The notes under the pieces are model-generated. The model worked only from the letters and a program-made list of their open reading frames with translations, was not told the origin of the DNA and did no database searches. From the NCBI GenBank assembly GCA_951804945.1, contig OX638152.1, positions 46,996,001-47,060,000 on the forward strand: a DNA stretch of 64,000 nt, in the 5' to 3' direction. The position numbers and the translations under genes were made by a program. Of the stretch, positions 3,299 through 49,161 are shown piece by piece. The stretch's first letter is position 1. Each line of letters opens with the position of its first letter. Origin of the DNA: Podarcis cretensis. Lineage: Eukaryota.

Positions 3299-3434
3299 CA
3301 GTGTTTCCCAACCTTGGGCCACCAGCTGTTTTTGGACTACAACTCCCATCATCCCTAGCTAGCAAGACCAGTGGTCAGGGATGATGGGAATTGTAGTTCA
3401 AAAACAGCTGGAGGCCCAAGGTTGGGAAACACTG
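3299..3434. mobile_element. Palindromic hAT-type MITE, 136 bp
   Basis: Near-perfect hairpin CAGTGTTTCCCAACC...GGTTGGGAAACACTG. Perfect 8-bp TSD CATTAGAC. Confidence 0.9.
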
Positions 3435-5383
3435 CATTAGACTAAGCACAAGAGCAGCAAATGGAAGTATCAAATTTCCAGAAACTGTTGATATGCTATT
3501 GCCAGAGGTTATAATTAGTATTGCTATTCTTTTTTAAAAAAAAAATAATATTTTTTTCATAGAGAGCAAGCAGTGAAAATCAGGACCTAAATTATTTCCT
3601 TTAGTTTTCTTTAATGTTAAGACTGACTACAGTGGAATTGAAAATACAGAGGCAAAAATTTAAATCTGCAGATCACAATAAAGCTTGGCCATTTCATATC
3701 TGAAGAACAATTCCCACCCTCCTAAGAGTACAGAAAGGTGGCTAGCATATACCTAGACAGTCAAAAGGGTATAACTGACTTGAACTTTAATGCAGACAAT
3801 CTTGGATACAATTCTGACAATCAGCTTTGGGCTGCAGCTGACTCATTCCCACTTCATCTCACTGATGTACTGGTTCTGGCATGCCAGCCAGCTGCCTTGT
3901 AAACCTCAGCAGACTTCATGTTCGCACCTATCAATCATGCAATTGTGCAGAGACTGATGAGTGTACAAGTTATTTATGTAGCATGCCAGGACAGAGAGTT
4001 AGCCACAATGATAATCTTGAGTACCAGTATGGAGATTATAGAGTAAATATGCCCTTAGAGTGGTCAAATCAGCAGCTATTTTGAGAAGGAACACCAACTC
4101 ATTGCATTCAAGCCTGCAAATTATCAGTGGGTTTCTAGACCACCCTGAAAAAGGCATGCTATCTAACAAGCAGCCAATGTATAGCAAGGCTCATGAGATA
4201 TTGCAACCATCTGTTCTCCTAAAGAATTGATGTAGTGCCCCATAGTCATCTGTTCTACTCACACTGCCCACACAAGTCATCATGGTTCACTGATAATCTA
4301 TGACAGGTGAAGCAAGAAAATAAGAGGTTGGAAGTTAATTGGCTCTGTGCAAAGGAATAATGTGAAATGGAAGGTTACATTTACGTATTTAAGTGACTTG
4401 TAGGGAAAGAAAACGAAAGACATGTTGAGTTTAGCTTCTCTAGGTAAAATACCATAATCCAATCAACCTTTATTGTACATTCAGTATAGGCGCTGATTGT
4501 ACTCTGAACCGAATAACCAACTTGTCATATGACAACCATATGATAGCCCTTTGTTGGAAGCCCTTGTAATGAACTGGCCCTTTAAACTCAGCCAATTGGT
4601 TGGCAGTTTGAGATCATTGTCTGCATGTGAGAACTCATTCAGAGGTGGAACTAGCACCACATATTACCACAGACATCTTGGCATATTTTGTGGTTACTTC
4701 ATGGGGGGGGTAGTATAGAATTTGCTCCGCACACAAGCAAATGAAAGCTCAAAAGTACGTACCTACTAGCCATTGTGCTTCTTGTTTCACCAACAAACTT
4801 TTCAAATAAGTATGACGTATCTGATCACCTCCTTACATTAGCACTAGTAAAGACCACATTAACACTAGTGAGGACCATTGATGTTAACCACTATTATTGT
4901 TGCTCTTCTTTCAAGGAGCTCAAAGCAGTGTAAACAGAAACTAATAAGAGCTCTAGAAAAGCAAATTTGATCACAAGAACAGCAAGAACTGAATTCTGAT
5001 CACATCTCTCTCACATTTCTTTTTCTTGTGTCCTTACAGTATTTCTACCCCTCTATAGATTGGCTTACACTCAGCAAAAAAAAGTCAAAAATATCTTAAA
5101 ATGTGTAGTTGTAAGAAGCAATTGTTAATGCCATATACAGTTATTCCTTTTCTGAAGTAATAGCTACAGATAGTCTGCTTTTCATTAAGCAGAGGGGAAA
5201 GCATACATGAGAAAAGATGAAAAAACATTACTGGTTAGGAAATTCTTAAAGAAATAGGGTGATTTTGATTTTGAAATTTGACAGTCTCTGGCTCTTATGA
5301 ATGTAGTCTTTGTTGCTGGTTTGATTAACGACAGTTGTACAATAGTGTGCTGACAGTCCCTGCCATTGAGACACATTTCCCCC

Positions 5384-5515
5384 NNNNNNNNNNNNNNNNN
5401 NNNNNNNNNNNNNNNNNNNNNNNNNNNNNNNNNNNNNNNNNNNNNNNNNNNNNNNNNNNNNNNNNNNNNNNNNNNNNNNNNNNNNNNNNNNNNNNNNNNN
5501 NNNNNNNNNNNNNNN
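5384..5515. other. Assembly gap (132 N)
   Basis: Run of N. Confidence 1.
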
Positions 5516-6310: not shown

Positions 6311-9301
6311 TGTATAGATAGCACTATAAATAAATGAATTGTAATATGTTTAAATACCCCATAGAAATTAGGAAACAGTACCACGAAGATTCAGAATTCA
6401 GTGTTTCTAGTATGGTTTGTGCAGTTCTGACAATAGCAAAAGGGTATGGGACAGGAACAAGAAATAAACACGTTATCATATAGGATGTCAGGTTTGTTCT
6501 TTAGCAAGTGGGGCTTGTGTTCTGCACTCTTGAAATATGCACGACCAGATGGGATTGGTTCCACTTGGGAGCTCCAAGTTGAGCTGAACCCTGACAAAAG
6601 AAAGGGATTATAATCAGAGCTGATCAGTGGTGATTAGCTTTCCAGAACTCCAGAGTACTGTAGCTGATCTCTGCTGAAAGTGTGGCTTGGGGACAGTGAC
6701 AATCAGCAGACCAGTGTTGACTTTAAGTACCACATGGATCAGCTGGTATCTTCCTTTGCAGCATGGCTTGAACTCAGCTATAACAGTCTTTCATTTAAGC
6801 AGCCTATCATTAATACTTCAATCAGTTGTACCAAATGGTTGTGCAAACAGAAGGCAGCTTGTGCAGTCAGATTTTCCCCTTCACTCACATTCTTTCCCTG
6901 ATTCCTTTGTCTTGCCTAATAGTGCATGCCAAAGGCTCCAGGGGAAAACCACATGGCATGGGGGAGAGGGACAGCCCTATGTAGCATATGTTGCAGAACT
7001 TGGAAAGGGCATTTTAAAAAGGAACCTGTTCCAGTTCAACATGTTCAAAAAGGAACCTATTCTAGTTCATGTTTGTCCTTTTACAAAATGAGCTCGTTCC
7101 ACTCGTGTTCCAGTTATCCAAATTATCCTCCCCCCCCCCAGGCCTTCAGCATTCGCAATGTTACAAACTATTGTACTGTGGTATAAAATATACTTAAGAA
7201 GACTAACAAAGCATCAAAACATACACGCAGTGGAATGTTGTGAGGATACAGATTTAGTGGGCGTGGGCAGAAGTTATATTGTGCAAGTGGTCACTCAACT
7301 TCGTTGAAGCACGACCATGTTGTTTGCAAAATATGGCAAAAGAGGGAATTCACCTCTCTTATGTGAAGATATAACACACAAAACTGCATGTTAACTGAGT
7401 TGGCCAGAAGTAAAGTGGTGGTTTGTGTAAAAATAAATAAATCTGCATTTGTTTTTATGGAGATGTCATTGAGGGGCCTGATCCTGGGGCTCCACAGGAA
7501 AACAGATGGGGCTTTGGATCCAAGGCTGCTTCTTACCCACACTTCCCTTGAGTCTACTACTCATGGTAGCTCTACATCCATAGAGCTTCTGCAGTATAGG
7601 GTATGTTCCTTTGTGGAGTGGAGGTGTTCCTCCTGACAGCAGAACTTATCTCTATGAGAGTAGAGTCCCCTTTGCCTCATCCTACCCACCTTCAGCCAGC
7701 AGCTCTTGAGATTGCTTTTTAAGCCTCTAAATTCCTATTTGAGTGGTGAGGTCATTGCCAAGTAGTAGCAACCTTATCAAGACTTTTATTTATTTAGTTG
7801 CTGGACTCTTTACCAAAAGAATAGTAGTGTTCATAAACTGTTAAAGCTGCCAGATGAGATTTATGAATGCGCCAACCAAGTATATTCCCTTTTTTGTACT
7901 TAAATTAGTTTATTTCTTGTTGTTATTAGACACAATAAAGTATAAGCAATATCCATCATGCCCTAACCAATTATAGCTGTTACCCTGCAAAGGTTAAGAA
8001 GTTTCAACACTTGCTATCATTACACTACATATTTTGATAGAACTTCTGGTATTTTTTGACTGAAAACCTTATTGGTTGCTAGTAGAAATTAAAGCATATT
8101 CAAAGCAGTTGGACTTTTCCAATGCAAAACATATTCAAAACAGTTGGACTTTGGGGGTGTAAGTGGGTATAAGTAAGAGAGTTTACAATTTCTTGGAGTG
8201 GAGTGGAATGTGTGTGTGTGTAATCTAAAAATCAACTGTTACACTTATTGTGCAACATTGCCTGAAGTTCCAAAGACACACTTGGAAAGTGTTGGATGAA
8301 AGCTGACTTTCTCAGCTTGAAAGCAAGAGATTATATGTCTTCTATACATTTTTAATAATGCTTAAAATTATGTACAACCAAACTAAAACATTTTATTACA
8401 GTGTGCAAAGATGAGCAAGCAAATGCAATGGTCATAAACATTGTTAATAAAAATTGAAAAGCATTGATGGATAATATGGTAAAAACTATTATATTAAAAA
8501 TAAGGAAAGCTAGAAAGGAGTAGAAAGATAGCAAACCACCACTATACAGTTGTTTTGAAACACTACATAAAATAATTTGCCATATAATAGTTGGTATCAA
8601 CCATCATCTTCACTGGCATTGACAACTAAGATAACATAAAAGTAAATCCAGTAGAAACTGAACCATTCTTTCCATCATTTTAGCAGAATGGAAAGAATAG
8701 TTGCTCTTTGTATCAGAGTTGAGGCACATTTATCCGACAGCTTGTATTACCTTTTCTGTATTGTAATTCAACCCTCAAGCACTGGAACGTGAAGACTTAG
8801 AGCATCTCAGCATGTAACAAAAATCTCAGCATATAACACAGAAACTGAATTCTCTTTGAAGAAATGAGGAAAACATAAGATACTGGCCATTTTTTGCTTT
8901 TTAAAAATGGAAACATTATCAGAGTTGAACAGCTGGGAACAAGTCAAGGAACAAACATACCTTTTGTTGACTGTTTTGTTTTATTCTGTGTTGGTTTTAG
9001 CATTAGCTATTATAGTTTTGGAAGTGAAATTAAGTTAAATGTCTTCTAATCTTCATTTTCTACTGACAAAAGATGGATTAGTATATCAGAGGGGAGGTAT
9101 TCTATCCTAGGCCTTGTAACATTCAGAACGATTATCTCGTTGTAGGGTACTTCTGGCAAGATGCAGATTTCTATGATTATTGAACTTCATAATTAGCAGT
9201 TCGGTGCCCAGCTATATATGCACCTCTTCTAGCTAGAAATAAGTTTTAAAAATAAAGGGATGCATTTTTAAGAAGCAGAACATGTGGTAGTAATGTTGTT
9301 G

Positions 9302-10146
9302 GCATCCGTCTGCCTCAAGAAACAATGAAGTGCACCTCCAAGGGCGAAGTCAAACCACCGGAGAATCACAGCACCTGCTGTGGCTGTAGAAACTGCTAAC
9401 TCATAACTGCTGCCTCCTGCCCTGATTTTGCTGTGTTAGCAGCACTGAAGTGCTGCATCTGGGCAGTGTGTACGGAGGTCCTGGGCTGCCCAGACAGCAA
9501 GACCCCTCCTCTTGGCCTTGCTGATGTGGTCCCAAGGAAAGCAGAGCAACACATTTGGCATGTTCCTTGGCTGCATGAATTGGCAGAAAGAGGTGTACAA
9601 TACACCATCCAACCACCTTAGGTATTCCACTCCGGATTTGTGTACGGTTTACTTCTTAGCCTTTTCTTCTCCTGAAGATGTCCCACAAGGCAGCGCTTAT
9701 GGATTTTTCCTTGGGGTTTATTCCTGGAGCCTCTCTCACAGATGAGTTTAGCCAGAGGGCTGTGGAGGTTTAGGATCAGAGTTTTCCTTTCCTACCTTCC
9801 CAAGTTGATGAGCCCTATCTGCTCTCATGCCCTCCTACAGAATGTGCAGTAACTGCCTTCTTGATCACTGGACCCACTATTGGTCTCGTCCATTCAATTC
9901 ACCAGAGCCTGTCTTTGCATGCAAGGGAAGTCCCAAACTCGCCAAAAGTTTGAGACCATTGGCTACCCTCACCTAGATTAGCCAGCCTGTTGAAACCATT
10001 CCCAGACTGTGGCATATCCCATGTTGACAGCTTCTAGGAGTCACAGGTGAGAGCTGAGCGCAGGGTGGGGACCAAAGGTGGACAAACTATCCCAGATGGA
10101 TGAGGATGTGTCCCCCACCAGAAGTACTATCCCTTCCCTTACACCC
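9302..10146 (-). mobile_element. Non-autonomous RTE-derived element (5'UTR plus 3' terminus, no RT)
   Basis: 3' end reads ...GAGGCAGACGGATGCC on the minus strand, as in RTE termini. TSD TAGTAATGTTGTTG / TAATAATTTTGTTG (12/14) at 9288-9301 and 10147-10160. A homologous copy lies at 29499-29855. Confidence 0.7.
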
Positions 10147-11059
10147 TAATAATTTTGTTGTCTAGTTTTTAAGAGAAAACTTTGTATTGAAGCTACCTTT
10201 AACCTCTCCAGATGTACATAATAATAGCAATACAGTAGTTTCTCCTTTCACTGATCAGTGGTTCAGATAATCCTTTTGTCTTCCCCATGCCTCTCATAAA
10301 TGGAATTAATCTTTCCTTGATGGTAGCACAGGAAACAAGAAAGCACAACAGATTTAGGCAGAGATGATACTGAAAGTGCTATGCTTAATACAAGAAATCA
10401 CCTTTTCCCTCCTGTCCCTTTATTTAAGATGGTTAATTGTTATTAATTAAAATTGAAAATGTGCTGATGTAACCAAGGATTAGATCCCTCATGCCACAGA
10501 GAAAAGTCTTCTAATTAATTTGCAATACACATAGGCCTGCATTTAGTTGCAATCTGTGCTGTGATTAACTTGACTAAAGCACATAGCATTATAGTGTGTT
10601 ATTAACTCATATTTCATTGAAAGGTCATTTTCCCCTTGGTTGTGTCTTGTAGAAGCTTCAGTTAAATACCCAAGCATTTAATGCACAGGATATCAAAGTT
10701 CCTTTGTTGTGTACACTTAGCATTTTTAAAAAATCAACTCCATAGTTTCTTAACTACCTTTCAAAAGTAATTTGAAAGTGTGAGGTGGATTCTCAGGGCT
10801 AATATTGAATAGAAAAGGTATCCATTAGTCCACTAGGATTTTCAATTTAAAAAACCCCCAATCATCTATCACTTTTTGTGGGTTACAAAACATGCCTTTC
10901 GGGTGAGAATTAGTTAGCCCTCGCCTCTGAATGCTGTTTCCTGTTTCCTACTACTCTACCCTCTTTATCAAGATTCCTAGGTGCTGTGAGAAGAGAGACA
11001 GTTCTACCCTGGTCCTGTTATCTCCCACTCAGAAATGGACTGTGGGCTTCTCATTCTCA

Positions 11060-12609
11060 AAAAGCTTAAGGAACTACTGGGTGAGATCCCATGGTCTGAA
11101 ATACTAAAAAAATGCTCAAAGAGAAGGAAGTTGAAGGTGGATGGGAGTTTCTTAAAGGTGAAATATTGAAGGTAAAAATGCAGACAATTCTAACAAGAAA
11201 GAAAAGGGCATCAAAAGAGGCATCAAAAGAAACTGGTGTGGCTGCAGAAGGCACTTACAGATGATCTGAGATTTAAGAAGGGTGTGTTTAGGAAATGAAA
11301 GAAAGGGGAAATCAAAAAGGAGGAGTGTACATGAGTAGCCAATAGATGCAGGAAGGAGGTGAGGCAGGCCAAAACTCATAATGAGGCAGGCAAATGTTGT
11401 CCCCATCTTCAAAAAGGAGAAAAAAGAAGACCCAGGTAACTACCAACCAGTCAGCTTGACATCGATACTAGGAAAGGTCCTAGAACAGATAATTAAGCAG
11501 TCAGCCTGTGAGCACTTACAAAAGGATGCTGTAACTACTAAGGCCCAGCATGGGTTTCTCAAAAATAAGTCGTTCCAGATTAATCTCTTTCATACTTTTG
11601 ATAGAGTTACAAGCTTGGCAGATCAGGGGAATGCTGTGGATGTAGTGTTTCTTGATTTCATTAAGGCATGATATTCTTGCAAGGAAGCTAGTAAAATATG
11701 GGCTGGATAAGTTAACTGTCAGCTGGATTTGTAGCTGGTTGACTGACCAAATCCAAAGAGTGCTCACTAATGGTCCCTCGTCATCCTAGAAAAAAGTAAC
11801 AAAGGGGGTGCCACAGGGTTTTGTCCTGAGACTGTTGTTGTTCAACGTCTTTATAAATGACTTGGATGAAGGAATTGAGGGGATGCTCATCTAATTAGAG
11901 AGGTTTCTAATCCCACAGAAGACTGAATTGGGATTCAAGATAACCTTAACAAGAACTAGGCCCAAAGCACAATAATTAATTTCAATAGGGACAAATGTCA
12001 AGGTTCTACACTTAGGCAGGAATAATCAGCTGCACATATATAAGATGGGGTTGGCGGGGGGAGACACCTGGCTTGCCAGTAGTACATGTAAAGGATCTAG
12101 GGGTCTTAGCAGACCACAAGCTTAACATGAGTCAACAGTATAATGCAGCAGCAAAAAAGCTAACGTGATTCTAGGCTGCATCAATTAAAAGTATAGTGTC
12201 CCCATCAAAGGAGGTAATCGTACCACTCTATTCAGCCTTGGTTAGACCACATCTGGAATACTGTGTCCAGTTGGAGAGGCACAATTTAAGGAATATATTG
12301 ACAAGCTGGAGTGTGTGTGCAGAGGAGGGTGACCAAGATGATCAAGGGTCTGGAAACCAAGCCTTATGTGGAATGGTTGAGGGAGTTCAACATGTTTAGC
12401 TTGGTAAAGAAGAAACTGAGAGGAGATACGATAGCTATCATCAAATAACTAAAGGACTGTTACATGGAAGGTGGAGCAAGCTTATTTTTTCCTGCTCTGG
12501 AGGTTACAGCCCGAACCAATGGTTTAAGTTACAAGACAGAAGATTCCAACTAAACACCAGGAAGAGTTTTCTGATGGCAAGAGCTGTTCCACAGTGGAAC
12601 AGTCTCCCT
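11060..12609 (+). mobile_element. Degraded CR1 LINE (RT to 3' region) with an internal deletion near 11380
   Basis: ORF fragments ANVVPIFKKEKKEDPGNYQPVSLTSILGKVLEQII...FLDF and [19 protein letters not shown] are typical CR1 ORF2. Many stops and frameshifts. Confidence 0.9.
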
Positions 12610-13500: not shown

Positions 13501-14100
13501 AAAAGTAACGGGACTTTAAAAAAAAAAAAAAATTTGGCTGAAAACGGGAAAGGCAAAAATTAAGGAAGTCTGCCTCCCCGGAACTGCAGAAGGAATAAAG
13601 CAACGAAAATCAAGCTGCACTTAAAGGGAACCTTTCTAATTTTTTTTAAGCTGTCAAACTGACATCGGACTTAAAACCTCCCCCCAGATTGGCAGGAGAA
13701 GGGGGGAAGGGATTGGAACGTTGTTAACCTGCTGAAAAATTAATGGAGAATTAAGACCTTCCATTGCCAAATCCCCTGGGGTCGGGCTGCCCAAACAAGA
13801 CACCGGGACGTGGACTGTCAAACTTTGAGAAGTGGGGATTTGTTTGCAAAAAAGTTATCGGACCTTAGATGTACTTTGCTGCATTTTGGCCACATAGAAA
13901 AATAGAGACATTACAATTTGGACATTGGAAACTTTTGGCTACTGTTATACTTCCTTGCTTCTTTGTTTTCTTCTATCTCTGCCATTTGGATACAATTGAA
14001 TGCTCCCTCTAGAGGGCTCTATCTGAAACTGTTGCACTTGAAAAAGTAACAGTGGGATTTTCCACTTGGGAATCAGCTCTGTGAAAACGACCTTGAGGAT

Positions 14101-15093
14101 ATGAGTGCCCCTACAGAAGAGATAGTAACAAGGCAGAAAGCAAAACAATCTCACAAGAAAAGGGCCTCTATATCAGGAACTGCAGCTGTCCAGGAAAAAA
14201 CACCAGCTTCTATGGATCCTATGACTCAGGCTCTACTTAAAATAAATCAATCCCTGGAAGCATTGACAAAACTTTCGACAGAGAATTCTAAAAAATTAAC
14301 AGAGTTGACAACAAGGTTGGATGTGAATACGGCTAGTGTTGCATCGAACACAGATTCTATAAATAGATTAATTCAGGAAAGTTCAGAAACACGAAAGATT
14401 GCAGAAAGTGCAAAAATAACGGCTGAAGAGACAAGGGAAAAATTTGGGCCTATTATTAAAAAAGTGAATGAGCATGATGCAGCCCTCTCCTTATTGGAAC
14501 TTCAACGTAAAGAGAAGAATTTAAAATTTAGATTGGTGCCTGAAGGGGAAGGGGACAACCTTGTGAAATTTCTCACAGAGAACATCATAACTTTTTGGCA
14601 GGAGGAATGGGAGGAAGATGAGGAACTTGAGATAATATCAGCCTTTCGACTGGGTAGAAGGCAGGACAAAAAACCAAGGGACTGCCTAATTACATTGAGA
14701 TCAAAAGAAGAAAGAGATAGAATATTGAATTTGCATTATCAAAAGGCATTGGTGATCCAAAATTGTCAGATACAGATTTTTAAGGACATTCCTAAATACA
14801 TTTTAGAGGTGAGAACATATTACAAGAGTTTAGTAGACCTGCTGAAGAAAAACACCATACCATTCAGATGGGAGTTTCCACAAGGATTGTCCTTTAACTT
14901 CAATGGAAGGAAGATTAAAATAAAAACAATTCAGGACAAAGAACTATTTCTAGAGAAATACCTGGAGGATCTGCAGAAAGGAACCGTGGAGGAGAGGGAA
15001 CCACCCGATATAGCAAATTTGTCATTTGGACTTTCATTACCACCATCGGAGGAAGAGCAGAAGCTTGGAGCAGTTGGAGGAACAGCTACCTAA
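14101..15093 (+). CDS. L1 ORF1p (coiled coil + RRM-like + C-terminal domain), 330 aa
   Basis: Open ORF directly upstream of ORF2. Heptad-like N-terminal region and L1-ORF1-type motifs (KNLKFRLVPE, AFRLG, IQIFKDIP, FRWEFPQGL). Confidence 0.9.
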   Translation: MSAPTEEIVTRQKAKQSHKKRASISGTAAVQEKTPASMDPMTQALLKINQSLEALTKLSTENSKKLTELTTRLDVNTASVASNTDSINRLIQESSETRKIAESAKITAEETREKFGPIIKKVNEHDAALSLLELQRKEKNLKFRLVPEGEGDNLVKFLTENIITFWQEEWEEDEELEIISAFRLGRRQDKKPRDCLITLRSKEERDRILNLHYQKALVIQNCQIQIFKDIPKYILEVRTYYKSLVDLLKKNTIPFRWEFPQGLSFNFNGRKIKIKTIQDKELFLEKYLEDLQKGTVEEREPPDIANLSFGLSLPPSEEEQKLGAVGGTAT

Positions 15094-15100
15094 ATACAAA

Positions 15101-18100
15101 ATGTCTCTGCAACTCCTTAGTTGGAACTGTAATGGTTTGAACCTTCCTCGGAAAAGAAGACAGGTTTTTCACATTTTGAAGAAAGAACAATTAGACATAA
15201 TATGTTTGCAAGAAACCCATATTGCCAGGATACACAGGAAATTACTAATAAATAAGAGACTCGGTCAAGAATTCATCTCATCAGACAAAGTAAAGAAAAG
15301 AGGTGTGGTGATCTATGCAAAGGAAAAGTTGGCTCCAAAATTAATATTTAAAGATGAACAAGGAAGATACCTGGCAATTGAAATACAAATTCAAGGAGAA
15401 AAGATATTAATTGTGGGAGTTTATGCCCCAAATGAAGGGAAGGCTGAATTTTTTAGGAAGTTGCATGAGACATTAGTTGACTTTTTAGATTATAAAATCC
15501 TAATGATGGGAGATATGAATGGAGTTGTCTCAACAAACATGGATAAAGCACAGAGACAAGTGATTTCGAAAGAAGGGAGACTACCAAGGATCTTTTTTGA
15601 AATGACTGAAACAATGGACTTGATTGACATTTGGAGAACAAAGAATCCTTTAGAGAGAGAGGGAACTTTCTTCTCAGAAGCAAAAATGACATGGACAAGA
15701 ATAGACCAAATTTGGATTTCTAGTAGTCTGGCGTCAAGAACAAAAAAAGTAGAAATCTGCCCAAAAACGTGCTCCGACCATAATGCGGTCAAGATGGAGA
15801 TGAAACTAACAACAACTGGTTCCTTTAGATGGAGAATGAATGACACCCTATTCAAGGATGAAGAGATCCATAAGAAGGCCCTTAAAACATTAAAAGATTA
15901 CTTTGAGATCAACAGGAAAACAGATGTGGAAAAAAGAATAATTTGGGACGCAAGCAAAGCCGTGATGCGAGGTTTCCTAATTCAACAAAATTCTATTAAG
16001 AGGAAGCAACAAAATGAAAAGAAGGAAAAAATTTTAGAAAAAATAAAAGAAGGAGAGAAGAAGTTGAGGTCCAAACCAAAGTCCCATGAGATTTTGAGAG
16101 AAATAAAGTTTCATCAGATGCAATACATGGAACTCATGAACCAACAAATAGAATGGAAGATAAAGCAAATGAGACAAAAAACTTTTGAATCAGCGGATAA
16201 ATGTGGGAAACTTCTGTCATGGCAATTGAAAAAAAGGCAGAAAATGAATACGGTAACAAGTTTAGAAATGGATGGAAAGATTATCCACAAACCCAACGAG
16301 ATCAACAATTGTTTTCAAAGCTTTTTTAAGAAATTGTATGCACAAGGGCCAACCAACGAGCAAGAAATAGAAGAATTCATCAGAAAATACGGTTTACCAA
16401 AAATCTCAGAACAAAGTAAAAGGATCTTAAACGAGGAAATAACAGAACAAGAAATAGAGGGTGCCATTCAAAATATGAAATTGGGAAAATCACCAGGACC
16501 AGATGGCCTGACGGCCAAATACTACAAAATGCTGAAAGAACGGCTGATACAACCATTGAAGGAAGTTTGCAATGAAATTTTGAAGGGGAAAAAGGCACCT
16601 GAATCGTGGAAAGAGGCTTTCATCTCACTTATACCGAAAACAGAGACTGAGAAGAACCAGGTTAAAAACTACCGCCCTATATCTTTACTCAATGTGGATT
16701 ACAAAATTTTTGCAGACATTTTGGCAAAAAGATTGAAAAGAGTGTTGGCAGAAGAGATTCATAAGGATCAAACAGGCTTTCTCCCAGGTAGACATATGTC
16801 AGACAATGTGAGGAACATTATAGACATTTTGGAGTTGCTGGACGTTGACATTAATAGGAAAGTAGTTTTGATTTTTGTGGACGCGGAGAAAGCCTTTGAC
16901 AACATTTGTTGGACTTTTATGAAAAAGAATCTCCAAGGGATGGGGGTAGGGCAAGGTTTTGAAAACGGTATAGGTGCAATATACTCTCAACAAAAGGCCA
17001 AATTAATTGTAAATAACGTGGTAACAGAAGAAATACCTATAGAAAAAGGTACACGACAGGGCTGCCCAATATCCCCTTTGCTTTTTATATCGGTCCTGGA
17101 GGTTTTGTTAAACATGATTAGAAAGGACCAGTTGGTTAAAGGAGTTCAGGTCGGAGTTAGACATTATAAATTAAGAGCATTTGCAGATGACCTAGTATTG
17201 ACTTTGCAACAGCCAGACACTAGTACTAAAAGAGTATTAGAACTAATTGAAACATTTGGTCGAGTAGCAGGTTTTAAATTGAATAGACAAAAAACGAAAG
17301 TGTTGGAAAAAAATTTAACAATGGAAGAAAGAGAGAGTTTTCAAAATGAAACAGGTTTGGAAATTACAAAAAGGGTAAAATACCTGGGGGTAAACTTAAC
17401 ATCCAAGAATGTGAACTTATTTAAGGATAATTATGAAAAATGTTGGTTAGAAGTTAAAAAGGATCTGGAAATATGGTCAAGGCTGAAACTTTCCTTGTTA
17501 GGCCGAATCGCTACTATTAAGATGAATGTATTGCCTAGAATGCTGTTTTTATTCCAGACGTTGCAGATTGTGGACAAGATGGACTGTTTCAAGAAGTGGC
17601 AGAAAGACATATCAAAATTTGTCTGGCAGGGCAAAAAGCCCAGAATTAAATTTAAGATTTTAACTGATGCAAAGGATAGAGGGGGGTTTGCCCTGCCGGA
17701 CTTAAGACTTTATTATGAATCAGCAGCCTTCTGCTGGTTGAAACACTGGCTACTTCTTGAGAACACTGACATTTTGGATCTGGAAGGGTATGACAATAGT
17801 TTTGGTTGGCATGCATATTTATGGTATGACAAGGTAAAGGTGTATAAAAGTTTTAAAAACCATATTGTAAGGAAAGCATTGTACAACGTTTGGATTAGAT
17901 ACAAAGATTTGTTGGAAAGTAAAACCCCTAGGTGGGTGTCACCAATGGAAGCTAGGGAAGTAAAAAAGCTTAATATGGATTCTAAATGGCCAAAATATCA
18001 TGAGATCATAGAATACGATGGTGAAAGGGTGAAACTTCAGAGTTATGAGAAACTAAAACCTAAGGTTCGAGATTGGTTGCATTACTATCAGATAAATGAG

Positions 18101-18838
18101 ACGTTTAAACAGGACAGGAAAATAGGATTTCAGAAAGAGAAGTCAAAATTAGAAACAGAATTGTTGGAACCCAATACTAAGAATTTATCAAGAATGTATA
18201 ACTTGCTGTTAAAATGGAATACACAGGATGAAACGGTGAAATCAGTTATGATCAAATGGGCACAAGATATAGGTCATGATATCATGTTTGCTGACTGGGA
18301 ACAATTATGGACCACCGGTATTAAATTTACTGCATGTAATGCTCTAAAAGAAAATATTATGAAAATGATCTACCGGTGGTACATGACCCCAGTCAAGCTA
18401 GCAAAGATTTATCATTTGCCTAATAATAAGTGTTGGAAATGTAATGAGACTGAAGGCACTTTCTACCACCTTTGGTGGACCTGCCCAAAGGTTAAAGCTT
18501 TCTGGGAAATGATCTATAATGAAATTAAGAAGGTCCTTAAGTGGACTTTTCCTAAGAAACCAGAGGCTTTCCTTTTGGGTATGGTGGGCCAAGTGGTGTT
18601 AAGAAAGGATAGGACTTTCTTTATGTATGCCACTACAGCAGCAAGAATTCTACTGGCAAAGTATTGGAAGACGCAAGAATTACCTACTCTGGAAGAATGG
18701 CAAACAAAGGTGATTGATTTTATGGGACTGGCCGAGATGACGGGCAGAATCCGGGACCAGGGGAAAGAGACAGTGGAAGAGGACTGGAAGAATTTCAAAA
18801 TATATCTTAAAAATAATTGTAAAATTGAGGAATGTTAA
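15101..18838 (+). CDS. L1 ORF2p: APE endonuclease + reverse transcriptase + CCHC knuckle, 1245 aa from the first ATG
   Basis: EN motifs SWNCNGLN, CLQETH, GDMN, RIDQIW, SDH. RT motifs KSPGPDG, YRPISLLNVDYK, GTRQGCPISP, FADD, KYLG. C-terminal CWKC-x8-H-x4-C. ATG at 15101; the track's start at 15026 is a TTG. Confidence 0.96.
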   Translation: MSLQLLSWNCNGLNLPRKRRQVFHILKKEQLDIICLQETHIARIHRKLLINKRLGQEFISSDKVKKRGVVIYAKEKLAPKLIFKDEQGRYLAIEIQIQGEKILIVGVYAPNEGKAEFFRKLHETLVDFLDYKILMMGDMNGVVSTNMDKAQRQVISKEGRLPRIFFEMTETMDLIDIWRTKNPLEREGTFFSEAKMTWTRIDQIWISSSLASRTKKVEICPKTCSDHNAVKMEMKLTTTGSFRWRMNDTLFKDEEIHKKALKTLKDYFEINRKTDVEKRIIWDASKAVMRGFLIQQNSIKRKQQNEKKEKILEKIKEGEKKLRSKPKSHEILREIKFHQMQYMELMNQQIEWKIKQMRQKTFESADKCGKLLSWQLKKRQKMNTVTSLEMDGKIIHKPNEINNCFQSFFKKLYAQGPTNEQEIEEFIRKYGLPKISEQSKRILNEEITEQEIEGAIQNMKLGKSPGPDGLTAKYYKMLKERLIQPLKEVCNEILKGKKAPESWKEAFISLIPKTETEKNQVKNYRPISLLNVDYKIFADILAKRLKRVLAEEIHKDQTGFLPGRHMSDNVRNIIDILELLDVDINRKVVLIFVDAEKAFDNICWTFMKKNLQGMGVGQGFENGIGAIYSQQKAKLIVNNVVTEEIPIEKGTRQGCPISPLLFISVLEVLLNMIRKDQLVKGVQVGVRHYKLRAFADDLVLTLQQPDTSTKRVLELIETFGRVAGFKLNRQKTKVLEKNLTMEERESFQNETGLEITKRVKYLGVNLTSKNVNLFKDNYEKCWLEVKKDLEIWSRLKLSLLGRIATIKMNVLPRMLFLFQTLQIVDKMDCFKKWQKDISKFVWQGKKPRIKFKILTDAKDRGGFALPDLRLYYESAAFCWLKHWLLLENTDILDLEGYDNSFGWHAYLWYDKVKVYKSFKNHIVRKALYNVWIRYKDLLESKTPRWVSPMEAREVKKLNMDSKWPKYHEIIEYDGERVKLQSYEKLKPKVRDWLHYYQINETFKQDRKIGFQKEKSKLETELLEPNTKNLSRMYNLLLKWNTQDETVKSVMIKWAQDIGHDIMFADWEQLWTTGIKFTACNALKENIMKMIYRWYMTPVKLAKIYHLPNNKCWKCNETEGTFYHLWWTCPKVKAFWEMIYNEIKKVLKWTFPKKPEAFLLGMVGQVVLRKDRTFFMYATTAARILLAKYWKTQELPTLEEWQTKVIDFMGLAEMTGRIRDQGKETVEEDWKNFKIYLKNNCKIEEC

Positions 18839-21141: not shown

Positions 21142-21934
21142 CCTTAGACCAATACTCATCTAATCAGAAAATGTCCGTACATGCAACTCACAAGTACAGA
21201 TTGTAATTTCATTAAAGGGGTATTTACTGAACTTGAGCAAGCTACTCACAGTAGTAATACAAAACAGAACCATGCGATATTTTTAAAGAAACTAACAAAT
21301 GTGTGCATTCAGTGCAGTAGCCTCAGTCTCACAAGAGTTGGCACTGCTATCTTCTTCCATGTAAAGGTTTAAACACTTATTACAGCATGTCATAAATTTT
21401 AACTTGTAATTGAAAATCTTTCCACTTTCTTAAGGGGGGAGGAAAATCTTGTATCACTTGCTACATAATTACAGGCTATGCAGCTGGTCTCTCAGGCTTT
21501 GCTAGAAATTTGAAAACATGAAACGCTGCACAAGCCCTAATCAAATTTTATTAAACGTTAAGCCAAAGAAATGTCATCACCCATACCACAGCATATCAGA
21601 GAGTAACAATGGCTCCATATCTAAGCCTAAATAAAGCAGAAAATTTAGGACTTGATTTTGGCCATATTTAGTTAGAAGTCGTTATGGATGCTCTCCATCA
21701 TTTAGGGACCTCACTGCCCTTCAATATAAATGTGTCAGTCCTATTTGCATGAAACACACATCAAAAAGAAAACTAGTCACATTAATAAGCTACTTGAAGA
21801 GGCACACCATTCCTACTAGTCAGTTTACATTGTCCAAACACTTTAGGAATTATATCTAACCACTTTGATTAACCACCTTTGGAATATTCTGGCGGCCAGA
21901 ATCTGGCCTGTATTTTACAATTTACACTCTAAAA

Positions 21935-22070
21935 CAGGCATAGGCAAACTCGGCCCTCCAGATGTTTTGGGACTACAACTCCCATCATCCCTGACCACTG
22001 GTCCTGTTAGCTAGGGATGATGGGAGTTGTAGTCCCAAAACATCAGGAGGGCCGAGTTTGCCTATGCCTG
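21935..22070. mobile_element. Palindromic hAT-type MITE, 136 bp
   Basis: CAGGCATAGGCAAACTCGG...CCGAGTTTGCCTATGCCTG. TSD 6/8 (CTCTAAAA / ATCTAAAG). Confidence 0.88.
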
Positions 22071-22251
22071 ATCTAAAGCAACATTCAATTGTAAAACCTA
22101 TTATTTCAGTCATGGGTATCAAGCTGGTGATCTAACAATTTCTTGTTTACCTACAGTAGTTTGACATGAGTCATACCTGATTAAACGTTTTCCTTGTCTT
22201 TGTGAGGTATTGTGGGTTTAAACTTATGCAGATTTTTTAGAACAATATATA

Positions 22252-22497: not shown

Positions 22498-23536
22498 ACC
22501 AGGTATTTTTATCCTTGATAAAATGCATGCTGTGTTGGGTCACCGATTCAAATGGGCTACTCCTATAATAAACCTTGTAACCAGCCAGAGCATAAATTCT
22601 GCATGGTACTGTTTTTAAAATGCCACTATGTTTTCAAAACAGATTATGAATTTGTTGATATTCATTCATGATCTATAAATGTAAAGAAAAAAATGCAAAT
22701 GAAACAATAAATATCTGTATGTTACGAACAATATTTTGCTCTAATCTGTTTCCAATAGTTTCTCTTCAGGATTTGCATTTGCTTTGACTTAATATTGAAT
22801 ATGTCTGATGTTGTTGTAGGCAACACTGGTGGTTAATTCATCTGATTCATGCATCCCCAGGGTGGCATGAATGCTTCTTGCTCATTGCTGTATTCTTGTT
22901 GTTCCAGTAATGAAAGTAAAGAACCACAATGTGGGACAGGTAAATGACATGGCTCCTTTCCTGACCTCTTTACAGATATAATCAAAGAGGGATGGGATCC
23001 ACCCACAAGGAAGTACTGTACGTCTGAGCGTATAAAATTAGCTCAGATGTTTAGGCATGTGAAATTTTAACTACCAGATGTAACCTAGGGCTACATTCAC
23101 AAGATAACACTCAGAGAAGTCCTGAGCATTATGATTAAAGTTGGGAGTGGTTGTGTGGTGTTTCTCCAATGTTTCTCACGGACATAGCTGAACACATATT
23201 TTACCTATATTTCTCCATGTTTGATTAATTAGCCAAACACAATGACTTTTGCAAACTTCCTGCCTCTCACACTCTGTCACTTAACAACAGCATCTGCCAG
23301 GCCAAGACTGATCCACAGGCTAGAGGTTCCTCATCACTGGATTCAATGGTGAGAGCTCTGTGCTCATTCATATTTGTCAGCCTAAAGGCAAAAACATTGT
23401 ACTGTGGAAGCACATGTTCAACAGGCAATAAAAATCCAGCACTCAACTAAAGTCCAAAACATTTTTCTGATAAATGTGATCAAGTACAGCAATCAGAATC
23501 ACCAGAAAGGAGAATAGCAATTAGTGTTTTTCATAC

Positions 23537-23675
23537 CTTCCTCTTGGCAAGTCATTGTCATCTTTCTTCCAACGCACTGTTGGCTGAGGATCCCCTTGTA
23601 CCTGGCATCTGAATTCTACAACTTCTTCCTCCAAAACCACTTGGTTGATTGGTCTCCTGAGAAATGTGGGTCGTT
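23537..23675 (-). CDS. ROBO2: ROBO2 internal coding exon (Ig3 N-half; exon 5 equivalent), 139 bp
   Basis: Hand translation (E)[45 protein letters not shown](R). Acceptor ttcaag, donor gtatga. Confidence 0.97.
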
Positions 23676-26531
23676 CTTGAAAACAAGAGTTCCAAATTAA
23701 ACAAGTTGGCTTTATTCAATTTCAAATCTTTGGGAACAATCCAGTCCTCAGCAAACATAGTGCCTGTATGCTCAACTGAGCCTTGTTTCTCCTTCTCCCA
23801 CTAGAAACCATAAAGTGGAATGACAGGTGTGCCTTTCATGTCTCCAAACTGAACTCCTGCCTCTCTGCAAACAAGTTATTTGTGCTCTGACAGGAAGGCA
23901 GAAACGGGACTCTACTGAGCACATGGGAATCTTGTACAGGATAAATGGAAAAAGCTAGGTATTTGCTATGGCCATTTCACAAACCCAAGCAATCAAAAAC
24001 AGTTGCAGTTACTGCATGATAAATGTGTTCATTTATATTATATATGGAGACGAGATGTGATTGCAGAAACTTCATCTCTTGATTGTTACCACCTCAGCTA
24101 GCCATGTGAGTCAACTCTAACTTTTCCAGTGACCATGGGTAAATTGAATACATGTTTCTTTAAGGCAAAGCACAATATGTTGCATGTTTTAACCATAAAG
24201 AGCTTGCAAGAAAACAATCACAGAAGTGCATACTAGATACCAAGGACATGCAAACAGAAGTATTCATTATTTTAATTTTGCACCATCTCTACTATTTTCT
24301 GTATGACTTCCAGGAAAAAAATAGTAATTTCCCAAGTTGTGTTCTCAGAGAGTATTGTGAGTTTGTCCAATAGCTAATTATACTACTATAGAATGATCAC
24401 AATGAATGCCACTACCAAAGCAATTAACATTCTTTATGCAAGATTAACTGGATTTGAATCACCTGCATAACTTGCTTGCAATGTTAATCTCTCAGGAGAC
24501 AAAAGAATACTGGTTTCTTGTGTATGCTAAATAAAGTATTGTCTTACATCACTCAGTTAAGTTAATTTCATAGCAGATTTTTGGAAATATGACTTGCTGT
24601 TTTAAAAAATCTGCCTATAAATTTTGGTGGCATAATTATAATTGCTGTTCTGTCAACAGCATTCAACAGATAAATTAAAATCATAGCTATAGATAACATG
24701 TATAACGTAGCCATTTTATAAGCTTTAGCTGAGTAAATAATGAACACTCTCAGACTTTGTTTCTGTGTGAATATTAAAAGCTTTTGAAGAGGGTAATAAA
24801 ATAGGTCACAGTTATATGTCGTGTCTGCTGTTTGGACTATGGCTGTTATGACCTTTATAACTTCGAATAAACTTTGCTTGTCGTTATAAATGTTTGCTAC
24901 CTATCACATTAATAAATTCACAGAGGCTTAAGTTATGGTACAGCACTTGACAGGACATACAAGAGCAGGACATTTTCAAAAATATAAAGTAGTGGGGAAA
25001 TTCCTTACTAGCCCTCATGAAGCTGCCACCAATGAACTCAAAAGTTCCCCACTGGTAAAGTGCCTTCTTAAGTTCACTCAGATTCCTTCTTCAATATGAG
25101 GAAACAAATCCCTTTGCTCCTCTGCCCATCTGAGACATCTTAGAACACTCAATTTCTACCCCCCACCTCCAGCAGCCGTATTTACATTTTCTCTCTCCAA
25201 AATGTATAGTTTATATCACTGCACAGCCAGGAGACATACTAAAACGAATGATAAGAATTCCCACTGAAAACAACGGGACCTTATCTGAAGGCCCATTGGA
25301 AACAATGGAGCTATGAGAATGCCAGTGGAGATCACAGAGCTCTATTAAAATAAAAACAAGTTTGACTGTTAAATGTGATAAAAATGTGATGTGATATTAG
25401 CTGCTCACTTGAGTATCTTTCTGCCTTAGACTCAGGTGAGGTGTGTATGCATGATACCAAATGCTAAAAGAAATGCAAAAAGGAAGTACTGAAAATAAAG
25501 CAGGTTACTACAAAAAAATTGAGCAGCTGCTACTTCAGCTGCTACTATTTCTACCACCATTGTGTCAGAGAAATCTGGTTTGAAATTAAAAGAGCAGTAA
25601 TACTCCTCAAATAAACCAGCGAATATCTGATTTTAAAATTAGGATATACCATTTCTCTCCAACAAGAATGTATCAGAACAAAAATACACAAAATTTGACA
25701 TGTGGTCCTGTGCAATTTGGCTACCAATGAAAAGAGATGTAGTTACTATCAACGCCTATGGCTTGCCATGATGTTTATTTATTTTAATAAATACCTATTT
25801 CAAATAATTTCAATTTAATTATTTATTTAAATTATTTGAGGCTGCTAAGAATAGGGAAGTGTGTATGTTGCCTGTAAACAGTGGAAAGAATATAAAAGTA
25901 AAAAAGTACTAAATTACTAGTGCCAGTTGCTGTTAAATGAAAGCGCTAATGTTCTTTACTTTTTTTTTAATTTTTATGAAAGTTTAAATAGTGACTTATT
26001 GAGTTAATCCTGCCCCAGAGAAAATTCCTTTTTTAAAAGTACTGTATGATAGAATGTAGATATATTACTTAATGCAAGATTGTAAGGCTTCCAGAAATTG
26101 ATCCTATCTTGATCAGTGGAAAAATCCTTGGCCACCTTTGGAAGCTGGTGACCCATAGTTTAGCCTTTCTACTTACTTATTTATTTGTATACATGCCTTG
26201 CAGTCCTTTGACAGAACATATGATGGTTTCAGATACTTTCCCACCATACACCTCAAGGGGGGGAAACCTTGCAAATCGCCACTCTGTCTAAATTTAATGA
26301 ACAAGCTCTAAGAAACTGGTGGATTGAGGGCTGTTTTATTCTAGCATACACAGACTCAAAGCTATCTTTTTTCACGTTTTTTGCTCTAATATATAGGAGT
26401 TTATCCAATGGTAGCTTTGTGCTCATGGAAAGCACTTCCACTCAGGTAAGGTTTGCACATGATTTTCACCAATTACAGCTGTTCTGAACTGCAGGGCAAA
26501 AAGAATGGTTTGCAAATGGATTGGTGAAGGA

Positions 26532-29498: not shown

Positions 29499-29855
29499 TC
29501 TTGGCATCCGTCTGTCATGAGAGACGATGCAGTGTACCTCCAAGGGTGAAGTCAAACCACTGGAGAATCACAGTGCCTGCTGTGGCTGCAGAGACCGCCT
29601 CCTGCGTTGGTTTTGCTGTGTTAGCAGCACCAAAGTGACCTCTCCAAGGCACAAGCCTGGGCAGTGTGCATGGTGGCCCTAGACAGCTCAGATGACAAGA
29701 CTCACTGATGTGGTCCAAAGAAAAACAGAGCAATACATTTGGCACCAGCTTGGATGCAGAAGTTGCCAGAAGAATTGTCCACTCCACTCTGAATTTGAGT
29801 AGCGTTTACTTCTTAGCCTTTTCCTCTCCCAAAGATGTCCCACAAGGCAGCAAGC
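29499..29855 (-). mobile_element. 5'-truncated copy of the same RTE-derived element
   Basis: Colinear with 9302-9695 (ggcatccgtctg...gaagtcaaaccac...gatgtcccacaaggcagc). TSD TCAGAGT at 29492-29498 and 29859-29865. Confidence 0.75.
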
Positions 29856-30796: not shown

Positions 30797-31300
30797 CCGT
30801 AATTTTTGCTCCATAAGAAGCACCGTCTGACCATAACACGCAGCTAGTTTTTAGAGGGGGAATCCAAGAAAAAAATATTCTTTAAAGGGAGCACTGAGCA
30901 GAGCCTGTATGCATCCCAGGCTCTGCTCAGCGATCCCTTTCACGAGCTGCGTGGATCGTGTGTGCGGCGCTTGCAGGCTTTTCCCCAAGGAGGGAGAAGG
31001 GCAGCCCGTTGCCCTTCTCCCTCCTCAGGGAGAAGCCCCCAAGAGCCGCACACACGATCCACATGGCTCTTTAAAGGGAGTGCAGCTCTTGCGGGCTTTT
31101 CCAGGAGGTGGGGGAAGGGACAGAGCACAGCTAAGCCAGAAGCTAGAACAGAGAGAGGGATTTCTGTGCAGCGCTCCCTCTCGCTGTTCTGGCTTCTGGG
31201 ATAGCTGCGCAGCCTGCATTTGCTCCATAAGATGCACACACACACTTCCCCTTAGTTTTTAGGAGGGAAAAAGTGCATCTTATAGAGCAAAAAAATACGA
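30797..31300. mobile_element. Tc1/mariner (pogo/Tigger-like) MITE within the 1025-bp ROBO2 intron
   Basis: TA|CCGTAATTTTTGCTCCATAAGA ... TCTTATAGAGCAAAAAAATACGA|TA, with an internal GC-rich palindrome. Confidence 0.8.
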
Positions 31301-31826: not shown

Positions 31827-34033
31827 CTGATACAAAAATAATATATAAATAAAAGAGAGGAAGAAAAAAGAAAGAAGATTTATTATAACAGCACACTGGC
31901 AAAGAAAAAAAATTTCTTGGTCAAAATTTCTTTGGTGGCTATTTAACATGCATTATAAAAAATCCATCCCAATCAGCCAATACACCAGAAATAAATATGA
32001 CTCCATAGGTGGCCGATTCTCAGCATGTGAGTACAGGCTATGCATATGTATTTTGTAGCAGTATCTCTCATATAAATGCACACATACACACCCAGTTTCT
32101 TTTTTTTTAATTCTGCAGCCACACCTGCCAAGTGACATCTGGCCAATGTGACCTTCTGAGGACAAAAAACCCTAATAGTATGATTGCCATTCTGACACTG
32201 AATTCTTTTCATTAAGGAAAACAGCATGCTGGACTTTGCTTGCAACCTTTTGGAAATCCTGTTTGCCTATCTCTCAACTGGCACCTATATCCACAGAAGT
32301 CACTTTAAAGTCATCTGGGCAAAAGATGAGGTGACACACTACACAGTTTTACTTCTACTGTTTAATAATAATAATAAAAACAAACAAACAGCAACAACAA
32401 TTTATGAAGGATGCCAAGATCTAGGTATACATAAAGGTATGCTTTTTTTATTCTCACTTTTTATCTTTGCTGCTATGATTGTGAGAGAAAACCAGAAGGG
32501 AGAAAATGCTTGCAGGTTACTCTCAACTGTTGGAAAACTAGTTTAGGGAACTACCTTCTTATAGAAATTATGTCACAGCACAGGGATTAGACTTTAGTGT
32601 TCAGAAATGATATTATTTTATCATTATTCTTCCATGCATGTTCCAGTCTCTAGGTTAATTGCCACCCTTAACAACACAGAACTGAAGAGAGCTCCAAAAT
32701 CAGCTACTAAAAATTAGGGCATCTCCTCTCTTGTAGTTCAACTATGCAAGAGGCTCATTACTGTTTTAATACAGATTTCACCTTTAGTGAAACAAGGGCC
32801 CTCTGAGAAATCAAGAAAAGCCTGTGTCTCACTAAAGGAGCAGTCTGGAACAGTTCAGCAAAAATGTTCACTCTTCACTTATAAGCAGATTTAATTTACT
32901 GCTTTTGCTGTTAATAAAATGTGCTCCATTTTAACATTTTGAACTGCACATTTCCCATTTTCGTGTGTTACATGGAAGGATAAAATTTATATGCACAAGG
33001 ATTAGCCACTGAATGGGTTGAGGTGAGCCTGCATATAAATCTGGCTCTCAGCTACAGATATGGGTTTCTGCTTATCGTTTTAGCATTTTCAAGGCACACA
33101 GGTAAATCCTAAGAGAGGGAGAAACTAATTAAAGGTTAATTTAGTTTCTAATATAAAAAGGAGCTGTTTATGTACACCATGTCTAGACGCAGAAAATAAA
33201 AATAAAAGAATTGGCGTAAAAATCATTCTGGCAAGAACTCCACTTTCTCTAAAGGAACACATCTGGCAGGGTGAAGGGCATATTTCAGAACCCTCTTCCC
33301 ACATTTTTCTTGCCTAAAGCTTCAAATGAAAGGCATCCTCTGGACTGGTGCATATTATACAAATCTTTCCCATAAAAAAGCAAGTTTATATATTTGCATC
33401 TGTCAAGAATTCACATTTGATAGAAAAGAAAGAAAAGAGTGAGGAATAGTTAATTTTGGAGACAAAATAGAATGTTGATATCCTAACACAGAAGAGCACA
33501 GAATGTGGCAAAGTATATCCAAAACACAGAAGTAAGAAATACACTATCAGAAGGCCAGCATATTCAACAATGACAATCCACAAAATTTCCCATTCTGTAA
33601 TATTCCTCTGTGTATATCAGTATACAAACACAGAAAGTGAGAAAATAATGAGGAAAAAAAGTTTATTTCACAAATGGAAGTTTGGTAATATTCAGGATCA
33701 AAAAGTACAATTTAAAAATTACACAGAAAGTCAAGCACCAATCCCAGCATGTTACAATACTGGAAACACTGATCTCTAAACTCTACTTGGCCTCTGGATT
33801 ATTTACATAATCACTGGCGTGCCCACTTTAGGATAATTAAATTTTAGCATCAGGATATGCTTTTTCTACTGTCTTCTGTCAGTGATCAAGCAATCACTTT
33901 CTACTCACTGTAATCCTTGACACCTGCCCCCAATCTAGATTATAAACCCCTTTGGGCTGGGACCATGAACTGTCTGCATTGTGTTCCATCTGAAAAGAGG
34001 AAAGGCAATCCTCAAACAAACAAGAAATTAACT

Positions 34034-49127: not shown

Positions 49128-49161
49128 TTACTATCTGTACTTTTCCACAGTTTGTTAACAG

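Follow-up and report, generated by a model that had tools for sequence, protein, structure and literature searches.

A repeat in an intron of ROBO2, located within the 64,000-nt stretch of Podarcis cretensis DNA analysed here (the window), raises the question of whether its 5' end folds as an HDV-like ribozyme and, if so, whether the host pre-mRNA is cut by it. The host gene and the orientation of the repeat had been assigned by a sequence-only reading of the window, and both were borne out. A minus-strand frame at 23536-23679 had ROBO2 as its best PDB match (E 1.3e-46, 1 difference in 47 residues), and immunoglobulin-domain exons were detected in minus-strand frames near 31.8, 30.6, 23.6 and 1.9 kb. 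Since the element lies between the exons at 23.6 and 1.9 kb and on the same strand, it is intronic and sense to ROBO2. The same insertion site was found in two organisms (contigs 8 and 16); thus, this insertion (hereafter, the ROBO2-intron copy) is old.

The ROBO2-intron copy lacks the first 10 nt of its family and is, therefore, 5'-truncated relative to the family. Within its first 380 nt, it was found to be related to the 5' UTR of an intact RTE on a metagenome contig (L005) at 65% identity over 278 columns (E 1e-21). No protein remnant was detected in the element by comparison to 120 RTE-type proteins or their profile, and its longest stop-free frame was 98 aa. Thus, the element has the composition of a bipartite non-autonomous RTE (i.e., a 5' end homologous to the 5' UTR of an autonomous RTE and no coding remnant), with a tail that displayed only a loose likeness to the WALLSI1/RTE-1_PSi tail. 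The target-site duplication that had been reported was confirmed, with 10160-10147 and 9301-9288 matching at 12 of 14 positions, a level reached in 4 of 20,000 random trials. A second copy (29854-29499) has the last 400 nt and the 3' motif in common with the element at 9297-10146, is flanked by its own target-site duplication (9/10) and ends in GGATGCC plus 4 nt before this duplication; it is the one further 3' copy of the 850-nt form within the window, and the comparison of family contigs described below covered 9840-10240. A tRNA-headed SINE was considered and ruled out, as no tRNA-derived head was detected by ARAGORN (0 genes) or by Rfam (no tRNA, 5S or 7SL match). Similar bipartite non-autonomous RTEs (RTESINE, WALLSI3, MAR4 and RTE-N) are described in the available text of PMC5786205 as having an RTE 5' end, non-coding sequence, a short repeat-like tail and a target-site duplication, and the possible presence of a 5' ribozyme is suggested there as one way to account for the retained extreme 5' end of such elements (Kojima 2018, PMC5786205). 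Five short motifs of the family were not found in the available portion of the supplement of that article.

Table 1. Coordinates of the element, its target site and the strands of its predicted ribozyme fold within the window.
Feature	Positions	Strand	Remarks
Non-coding RTE-derived element, about 850 nt	9297-10146	-	Likeness to L005 5' UTR; no protein remnant
Target-site duplication, 5' copy	10147-10160	-	9-14 nt, depending on count of CAA-like tail
Target-site duplication, 3' copy	9288-9301	-	First 5 nt overlap element tail
Second GGGGUGU repeat minus its first G	10141-10146	-	P1 strand of sequence-only reading; predicted outer 5' strand of P1.2
Structured J1/2 (P1.2) domain	10054-10146	-	-36.9 kcal/mol; -28.6 kcal/mol without first six bases
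P2 5' strand	10044-10053	-	9 Watson-Crick pairs and one G-U with 9975-9966; identical strand in L005
P3 5' strand	10040-10042	-	GAC here; GGC in family and L005
Canonical L3 core UCCUAG	10034-10039	-	U1, P1.1 cytosines, G6
Hairpin inserted behind L3 G6	10014-10031	-	5' arm (GCUGUC) intact; decay of loop and 3' arm, with 2 nt lost
P3' (GCC) and P1'	10004-10013	-	P1' ACAGUCU here; ACACCCC in family and L005
J1/4 GG (P1.1) and P4	9983-10003	-	P4 -1.4 kcal/mol, compared to -7.9 in L005
P2 3' strand and J4/2 (GCUAA, candidate catalytic C9981)	9966-9982	-	
GCAUGY motif, about 45 nt behind P2'	9917-9922	-	Complementary to hairpin loop
Second family copy, 5'-truncated, without ribozyme part	29499-29854	-	68.5% over 413 columns

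Each strand of the HDV-like fold that the sequence-only reading had named was present on the minus strand of the ROBO2-intron copy at the place given to it. Pairing was complete for P2 (10053-10045 with 9974-9966, 9/9) and P1.1 (2/2), but not for P1 as originally drawn (5/6) or for P3, where GAC/GCC forms 2 of 3 pairs with an A-C mismatch; of the 6 pairs in P4, 4 were G-U. A candidate catalytic C followed by N-R-A was found in both the ROBO2-intron copy (CUAA at 9981) and L005 (CUAA at 1572). Several other guanosines (G10132/10131, G10092/10091 and G10087) fit as the start of P1 as well as G10146 or better. No match was obtained in this copy with a strict descriptor. A loose descriptor (allowing one mismatch in P1 and one in P3, with L3 of at most 35 nt and P2 of 9) matched the fold and one other site in the window, compared to a mean of 2.43 matches in dinucleotide-shuffled 64-kb windows, with at least one match in 52 of 60 shuffles; when the ribozyme region itself was shuffled, 12 of 2,000 sequences matched. 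No ribozyme family was detected by Rfam up to E 10 (4 unrelated weak matches in the window region and 0 in L005), and whole-region folding z-scores were weak (-1.13 for the window and -0.99 for L005). Taken alone, the match from the ROBO2-intron copy is no better than chance.

The fold is instead established by relatives. L005 was the sole locus matched by the letter pattern of P2 and J4/2, and its fold is complete, with P1 7/7, P2 9/9, P3 3/3, P1.1 2/2 and P4 6/6 in the nested double-pseudoknot order P1, P2, P3, P1.1, P4 and without mismatch; as the locus was chosen by its P2 and J4/2 letters, the independent part of this agreement is P1, P3, P1.1 and P4. The strict descriptor with a long L3 matched L005 and none of 2,000 shuffles, and a refined descriptor matched only L005 among 168 loci. 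A G1388-C1548 pair places G1 opposite a pyrimidine at the 5' boundary of L005, a pair that is missing from the ROBO2-intron copy. Downstream of the ribozyme region, L005 encodes a 1,090-aa ORF with endonuclease and reverse transcriptase, 100% identical to a protein (P0002) of 1,090 aa with PF03372 and PF00078, a single ORF and no ORF1. Relatives of this protein were found in turtles, a shark, fish, amphioxus, a sea anemone and crustaceans. Based on its single-ORF architecture and on its motifs, we take L005 to belong to the RTE clade. No further relatives homologous beyond the pattern were found in viral scans (4, 0, 19, 0 and 24 loci) or among 120 bacterial loci, nor were any found by protein-based locus scans or by phage and plasmid BLAST. 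A 9-bp hairpin was also noted directly 3' of P2' in L005 (1588-1609), and a 12-bp hairpin of other sequence lies at about the same place in the window.

The letters of the family were determined from two contig runs (X1 and X9) and two RNA runs aligned to 9840-10240 at a likeness of at least 80% to the ROBO2-intron copy, which yielded 3,503 and 3,788 contigs and 171 and 211 RNA reads. Family letters are given in RNA sense and by contig depth, and are drawn from the differences listed (40 of 102); the loose ends cited are likewise those listed, beyond which lie 607 further entries. At 10041, the family has G (96% of depth in X1 and 95% in X9), and P3 is thereby restored. For P1', the family has C at 10007 (63% and 64%) and at 10006 (100% and 58%), and together with the loose ends at 10020 (100 and 108 contigs) these give ACACCCC, from which the ROBO2-intron copy differs by three changes. 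The P4 wobble becomes C-G with the family C9995 (71% and 85%), A9977 (97% and 96%) and C9975 (89% and 93%) match L005, and G was found at 10024 at 93-94% of depth. All of these listed core differences (10041, 10024, 10007, 10006, 9995, 9977 and 9975) shift the copy towards pairing or towards L005; position 9981 was not among the 40 of 102 differences listed. The sequence-only reading had proposed asking whether a family consensus restores pairing in P1 and P3, and the family letters restore both.

With the fold restored in the family letters and intact in L005, an HDV-like fold at the 5' end of this non-coding RTE-derived element withstood the comparison, and as judged from sequence it is the relatives that make the fold real. 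The alternative, that a conserved UTR only happens by chance to read as such a fold, is in keeping with the number of loose matches per shuffled window and the negative Rfam search; it is already largely refuted by the perfect five-helix match at the first base of the element in L005 and by family letters that repair the mismatches, and we consider it barely credible. Pairing-preserving variation between the family and L005 was observed in P4 (pair 2, G-Y compared to C-G) and in inner P1.2, which differs in sequence and is paired in both; this covariation comes from two lineages only, and P1 and P3 are invariant and so are without it.

The sequence-only reading had taken 10146 as both the element boundary and the cut site. 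The former holds for the ROBO2-intron copy, but the family runs 10 nt further upstream, beginning with a doubled GGGGUGU, and the same doubled start is present in L005 (1388-1403). Upstream of 10147, contig depth dropped to 15-35, having been about 2,500. Loose ends at 10146 (60 and 58 contigs) consisted of ten more family bases, namely the first GGGGUGU repeat and a spacer, followed by an A/T-rich flank unrelated to the family. Agreement among these loose ends was 0.48, from which a rough hand estimate suggests that roughly two-thirds to three-quarters of the contigs reach the first repeat. These alignments place the 5' boundary of the family at the G that opens the first GGGGUGU.

The original P1 register (10146-10141) was not upheld, as this strand pairs far better with 10061-10056 as the outer part of P1.2. 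By the nested-fold model, pair probabilities for 10141-10146 with 10056-10061 were 0.96-1.0, and the duplex had an energy of -12.3 kcal/mol compared to -3.1 kcal/mol for the register originally drawn. At 10059 the family letter is A (97% of contig depth in X1 and X9 alike), which changes U-G to U-A in this helix. Removing the second repeat costs about 8 kcal/mol in L005 as in the window, the P1.2 counterpart of L005 (of different inner sequence) going from -40.4 to -32.1 kcal/mol. Similarly, the nested model of L005 placed the second repeat in the helix closing J1/2 at 0.86-0.91 and the first repeat at 0, although nested-fold probabilities cannot show P1 together with P2 and near-zero values for P1 were therefore disregarded as evidence. 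As the probabilities, energies and A10059 all favour the second repeat in P1.2, the first repeat is assigned to P1 and the second to P1.2. In this model, the predicted cut site is the first base of the family, which is absent from the ROBO2-intron copy.

Both repeats might instead act at times as P1, giving two cut sites 9 nt apart with the ROBO2-intron copy derived from the second, an alternative that comes nearest to the sequence-only reading. Both repeats of L005 pair 7/7 with P1' at equal energy (-11.8 kcal/mol), the 5' end of the ROBO2-intron copy lies one base inside the second repeat, the preceding base is U, which the available text of PMC1874588 gives as the best -1 base for genomic HDV, and the loose-end agreement of 0.48 allows a minority of copies to start elsewhere. 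Use of the second repeat as P1 would, however, forfeit the energy that it contributes to P1.2, where most of the L005 ensemble has it, and a single copy starting there is indistinguishable from an ordinary 5' truncation. We regard this alternative as unlikely and retain the assignment of the first repeat to P1.

No pile-up of RNA ends was seen in the aligned reads, although fragmented libraries would rarely show one. None of the RNA reads (0 of 171 and 0 of 211) was at least 99% identical to the ROBO2-intron copy, and no RNA depth was detected on its flank; the aligned reads come from other family copies, are of mixed strand and are uninformative on the expression or cleavage of this copy. Read and contig depth at 10022-10100 was far above that elsewhere in the ribozyme region, and several contig joints jumped from about 10020-10030 to 9880-9960. 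This uneven depth may reflect uneven decay of the copy or subfamilies with core deletions.

An L3 of about 26 nt had been singled out as unusual. The length was confirmed (26 nt in L005 and the ROBO2-intron copy and 28 nt from the family letters, compared to the 7-8 nt expected), but the loop is not simply enlarged. Instead, a canonical six-base core (UCCACG in L005) is followed by an inserted hairpin, such that L3 reads UCC-H-M-G, then AA, the hairpin of 17-19 nt and one G. The base replaced by this insertion would correspond to an outward-pointing, dispensable position in HDV (U27). The 3' arm of the family hairpin, GACAGC, was recovered from the loose ends at 10020. The family letters give 6 hairpin pairs compared to 5/5 in L005, with one base more per arm and C-G in place of U-G, and the loop AGCAUGC is the same in both. 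Descriptors with a short L3 miss both L005 and the ROBO2-intron copy. U at position 1 and G at position 6 of L3 were present at canonical spacing in L005 and the window, and a U1/G6 reverse wobble is described as a feature of HDV-like ribozymes in the available text of PMC3386971. Loss of the L3 G from the ROBO2-intron copy was also considered and ruled out by comparison to Agam-2-1, which shows that G6 is kept. An HDV-like design descriptor in the accessible part of PMC6326823 fixes C at L3 position 5, which is A in the ROBO2-intron copy.

A GCAUGY motif complementary to the hairpin loop lies downstream of the fold in the window and at 1633 in L005, and in the 857-nt 5' UTR of L005, GCAUGY occurs at no place other than the loop and this site. 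The duplex between them was estimated at -10.1 kcal/mol, an energy equalled or bettered by 2 of 157 control windows and by the UTR site 1710-1714; because it is not unique among controls, this pairing stays a hint. The loop is also self-complementary (self-duplex, -8.4 kcal/mol). A far-reaching scheme, in which an active HDV-like subclass would be widespread in animal RTEs, the L3 hairpin would be regulatory, a third pseudoknot between AGCAUGC and GCAUGY or a kissing dimer would gate cleavage, and the doubled P1 would provide two cut sites with the ROBO2-intron copy derived from the second, is in our view a long shot.

The Agam-2 ribozyme is linked to RTE elements. Agam-2-1, as described in the available text of PMC4908430, resembles the family and L005 in its 7-bp P1, short linker, structured P1.2, P2 of at least 10 pairs, 3-bp P3, GG of P1.1 and GGCUAA junction, and its wild-type L3, UCCACGU (Table S1), begins with the same six bases as that of L005. 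The predicted folds likewise display a structured P1.2, short linkers (3 and 2 nt in L005) and an extended P2 (9-10 pairs). By contrast to the 7-nt L3 of Agam-2-1, the family and L005 have the seventh base replaced by 19-21 nt that include a hairpin, and their P4 is short and their P1 strand doubled. Cleavage of Agam-2-1 is as much as three orders of magnitude faster owing to its short linkers, its P1.2 and its P2 of 12 bp (PMC4908430, available text). More broadly, 5' HDV-like ribozymes are reported in the accessible text of PMC6765202, PMC5786205, PMC3774820 and PMC11620745 from R2, R4, baggins, RTE and L1Tc elements, where, as in the family, they lie at the first base of the element with a proposed release from the host co-transcript. 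These vary in J1/2 and P4/L4 and are conserved in P1.1, P3 and L3, with no L3 hairpin mentioned in those portions, whereas the family has one. Neither an L3 hairpin nor a doubled P1 was found in the available parts of PMC13708176, PMC10162972, PMC9901934, PMC1874588 and PMC10879173. Both the occurrence of HDV-like ribozymes at the 5' ends of RTEs and the retention of the 5' end in non-autonomous RTEs are already known (PMC5786205); an L3 hairpin, a doubled P1 or a reptile RTE ribozyme was not found in the literature searched, and the supplements of Webb 2009 and Ruminski 2011 may list such cases. The family would represent an Agam-2-type HDV-like fold, as predicted, at an RTE 5' end with an L3 hairpin that we have not found in print.

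By sequence, the family and L005 carry P1 (7 bp), P1.2, a long P2, P3, P1.1, P4 and CUAA in HDV order. The best explanation is probably that the ROBO2-intron copy is a decayed, non-coding RTE-derived element truncated by 10 nt and likely inactive, in a family whose first 200 bases form a predicted HDV-like ribozyme with an L3 hairpin, likely freeing the element RNA at its first G. In such a mechanism, family RNA would be made by read-through from host transcription, and the second repeat would zip into P1.2 first during transcription, so that the first would remain available to form P1. As in Agam-2-1, the core would be pinched between P1.2 and the long P2, with U1-G6 binding metal, the counterpart of C9981 acting as general acid and the hairpin standing for the seventh L3 base and pointing outwards. 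A cut before G1 would leave an RNA with a defined 5' end that may be reverse-transcribed by the protein of an autonomous RTE into new sites. Release of the element from a host co-transcript is the role given for 5' HDV-like ribozymes in the available text of PMC6765202, PMC7761336 and PMC11620745.

Several points count against predicted cleavage: an L3 outside the 7-8 nt of tested HDV-like ribozymes, as L3 is part of the active site; the A at L3 position 5; the weak folding z-scores; competing pairings; and the lack of an RNA-end pile-up. The fold may be real and cutting lost, i.e., the L3 hairpin inactivated an ancestor, the structure was kept as a 5' cap or a site for the RTE protein, and the 5' end is set by a promoter or protein. 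This is consistent with the position of the insert in the catalytic loop, with the absence of an RNA-end pile-up and with competing pairings, for the nested model of L005 prefers an extended P3 that takes three P1' bases (probability about 0.6), and GAAG(C/U) of L3 can pair with the P4 5' strand in the window (10034-10028/9997-9991, -6.2 kcal/mol) and in L005 (1518-1522/1557-1561, -5.7 kcal/mol). The GAAG/CUUC pairing is possibly an inactive alternative fold. In addition, the R2 fold is said in the available parts of reviews to guard against 5' decay and to bind protein. Against this alternative, U1, G6, P1.1, G1-C and CUAA all persist in two lineages that share only 65% identity, and the family boundary sits at G1; we consider it improbable and a cleaving family the preferred reading.

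For the ROBO2-intron copy itself, the sequence-only reading had judged it probably dead, and we agree; its further suggestion of residual cutting of the intron was left without support. This copy lacks the first P1 strand, carries three changes in P1' and an A-C mismatch in P3, and retains little of P4 (-1.4 kcal/mol); therefore, ROBO2 pre-mRNA is likely uncut. That this copy is active enough to cut the intron and affect expression draws on its sense orientation, its intact C9981, G10034, P1.1 and P2, and its presence at the same site in two organisms. Against this stand a best P1 of 5/6 or 6/7 with an internal mismatch, the incomplete P3 and P4 and the failed strict descriptor, which make such activity highly improbable, and cutting of ROBO2 pre-mRNA by this copy is, from its letters, very unlikely. 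In R2 ribozymes, P1 mismatches, even single ones, accompany loss of activity according to the available text of PMC3774820. The CPEB3 ribozyme is similar in that its HDV-like fold lies in the sense direction within an intron of vertebrates; it is intact and conserved, whereas the ROBO2-intron copy is a decayed repeat with broken P1 and P3. The ROBO2 angle is thus unimportant, as this copy is very likely dead.

The interest lies with the family. If it cleaves, the active-site loop of HDV would tolerate a whole hairpin behind its conserved G, a high-copy class of ribozymes in the RTEs of vertebrates and invertebrates would have escaped searches for an L3 of 7-8 nt, and the L3 insertion point would offer a new site for grafting modules onto a ribozyme in wide use. 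The 5' UTR of opossum RTE-1_MD presumably looks similar. Cleavage by the family would also account for the retention of the extreme 5' end in non-autonomous RTEs (Kojima 2018), and a bearing on RTE-based gene insertion is possible, where template RNAs carry element UTRs (PMC13708176, available text).

Other repeats were noted in the window. An apparently intact two-ORF L1-like element, possibly young, lies antisense in the same ROBO2 intron (14050-18838, plus strand), with stop-free frames of 347 aa and 1,274 aa, the second having endonuclease and reverse transcriptase motifs. Broken reverse transcriptase frames were found at 42826-44370 and 11363-11930 (both plus strand), which we take from their motifs to be L2-like and CR1-like, respectively. 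A 390-nt repeat, presumably Sauria-SINE-like, is present in two copies that are 79% alike (48743-49129 and 55563-55957). An assembly gap spans about 5260-5390, with N totalling 132 in the window. Near-perfect inverted repeats of 135-155 nt, likely MITEs, were detected at 3299-3434, 21927-22078, 30934-31079 and 34024-34178, of which the first two are mutually related.
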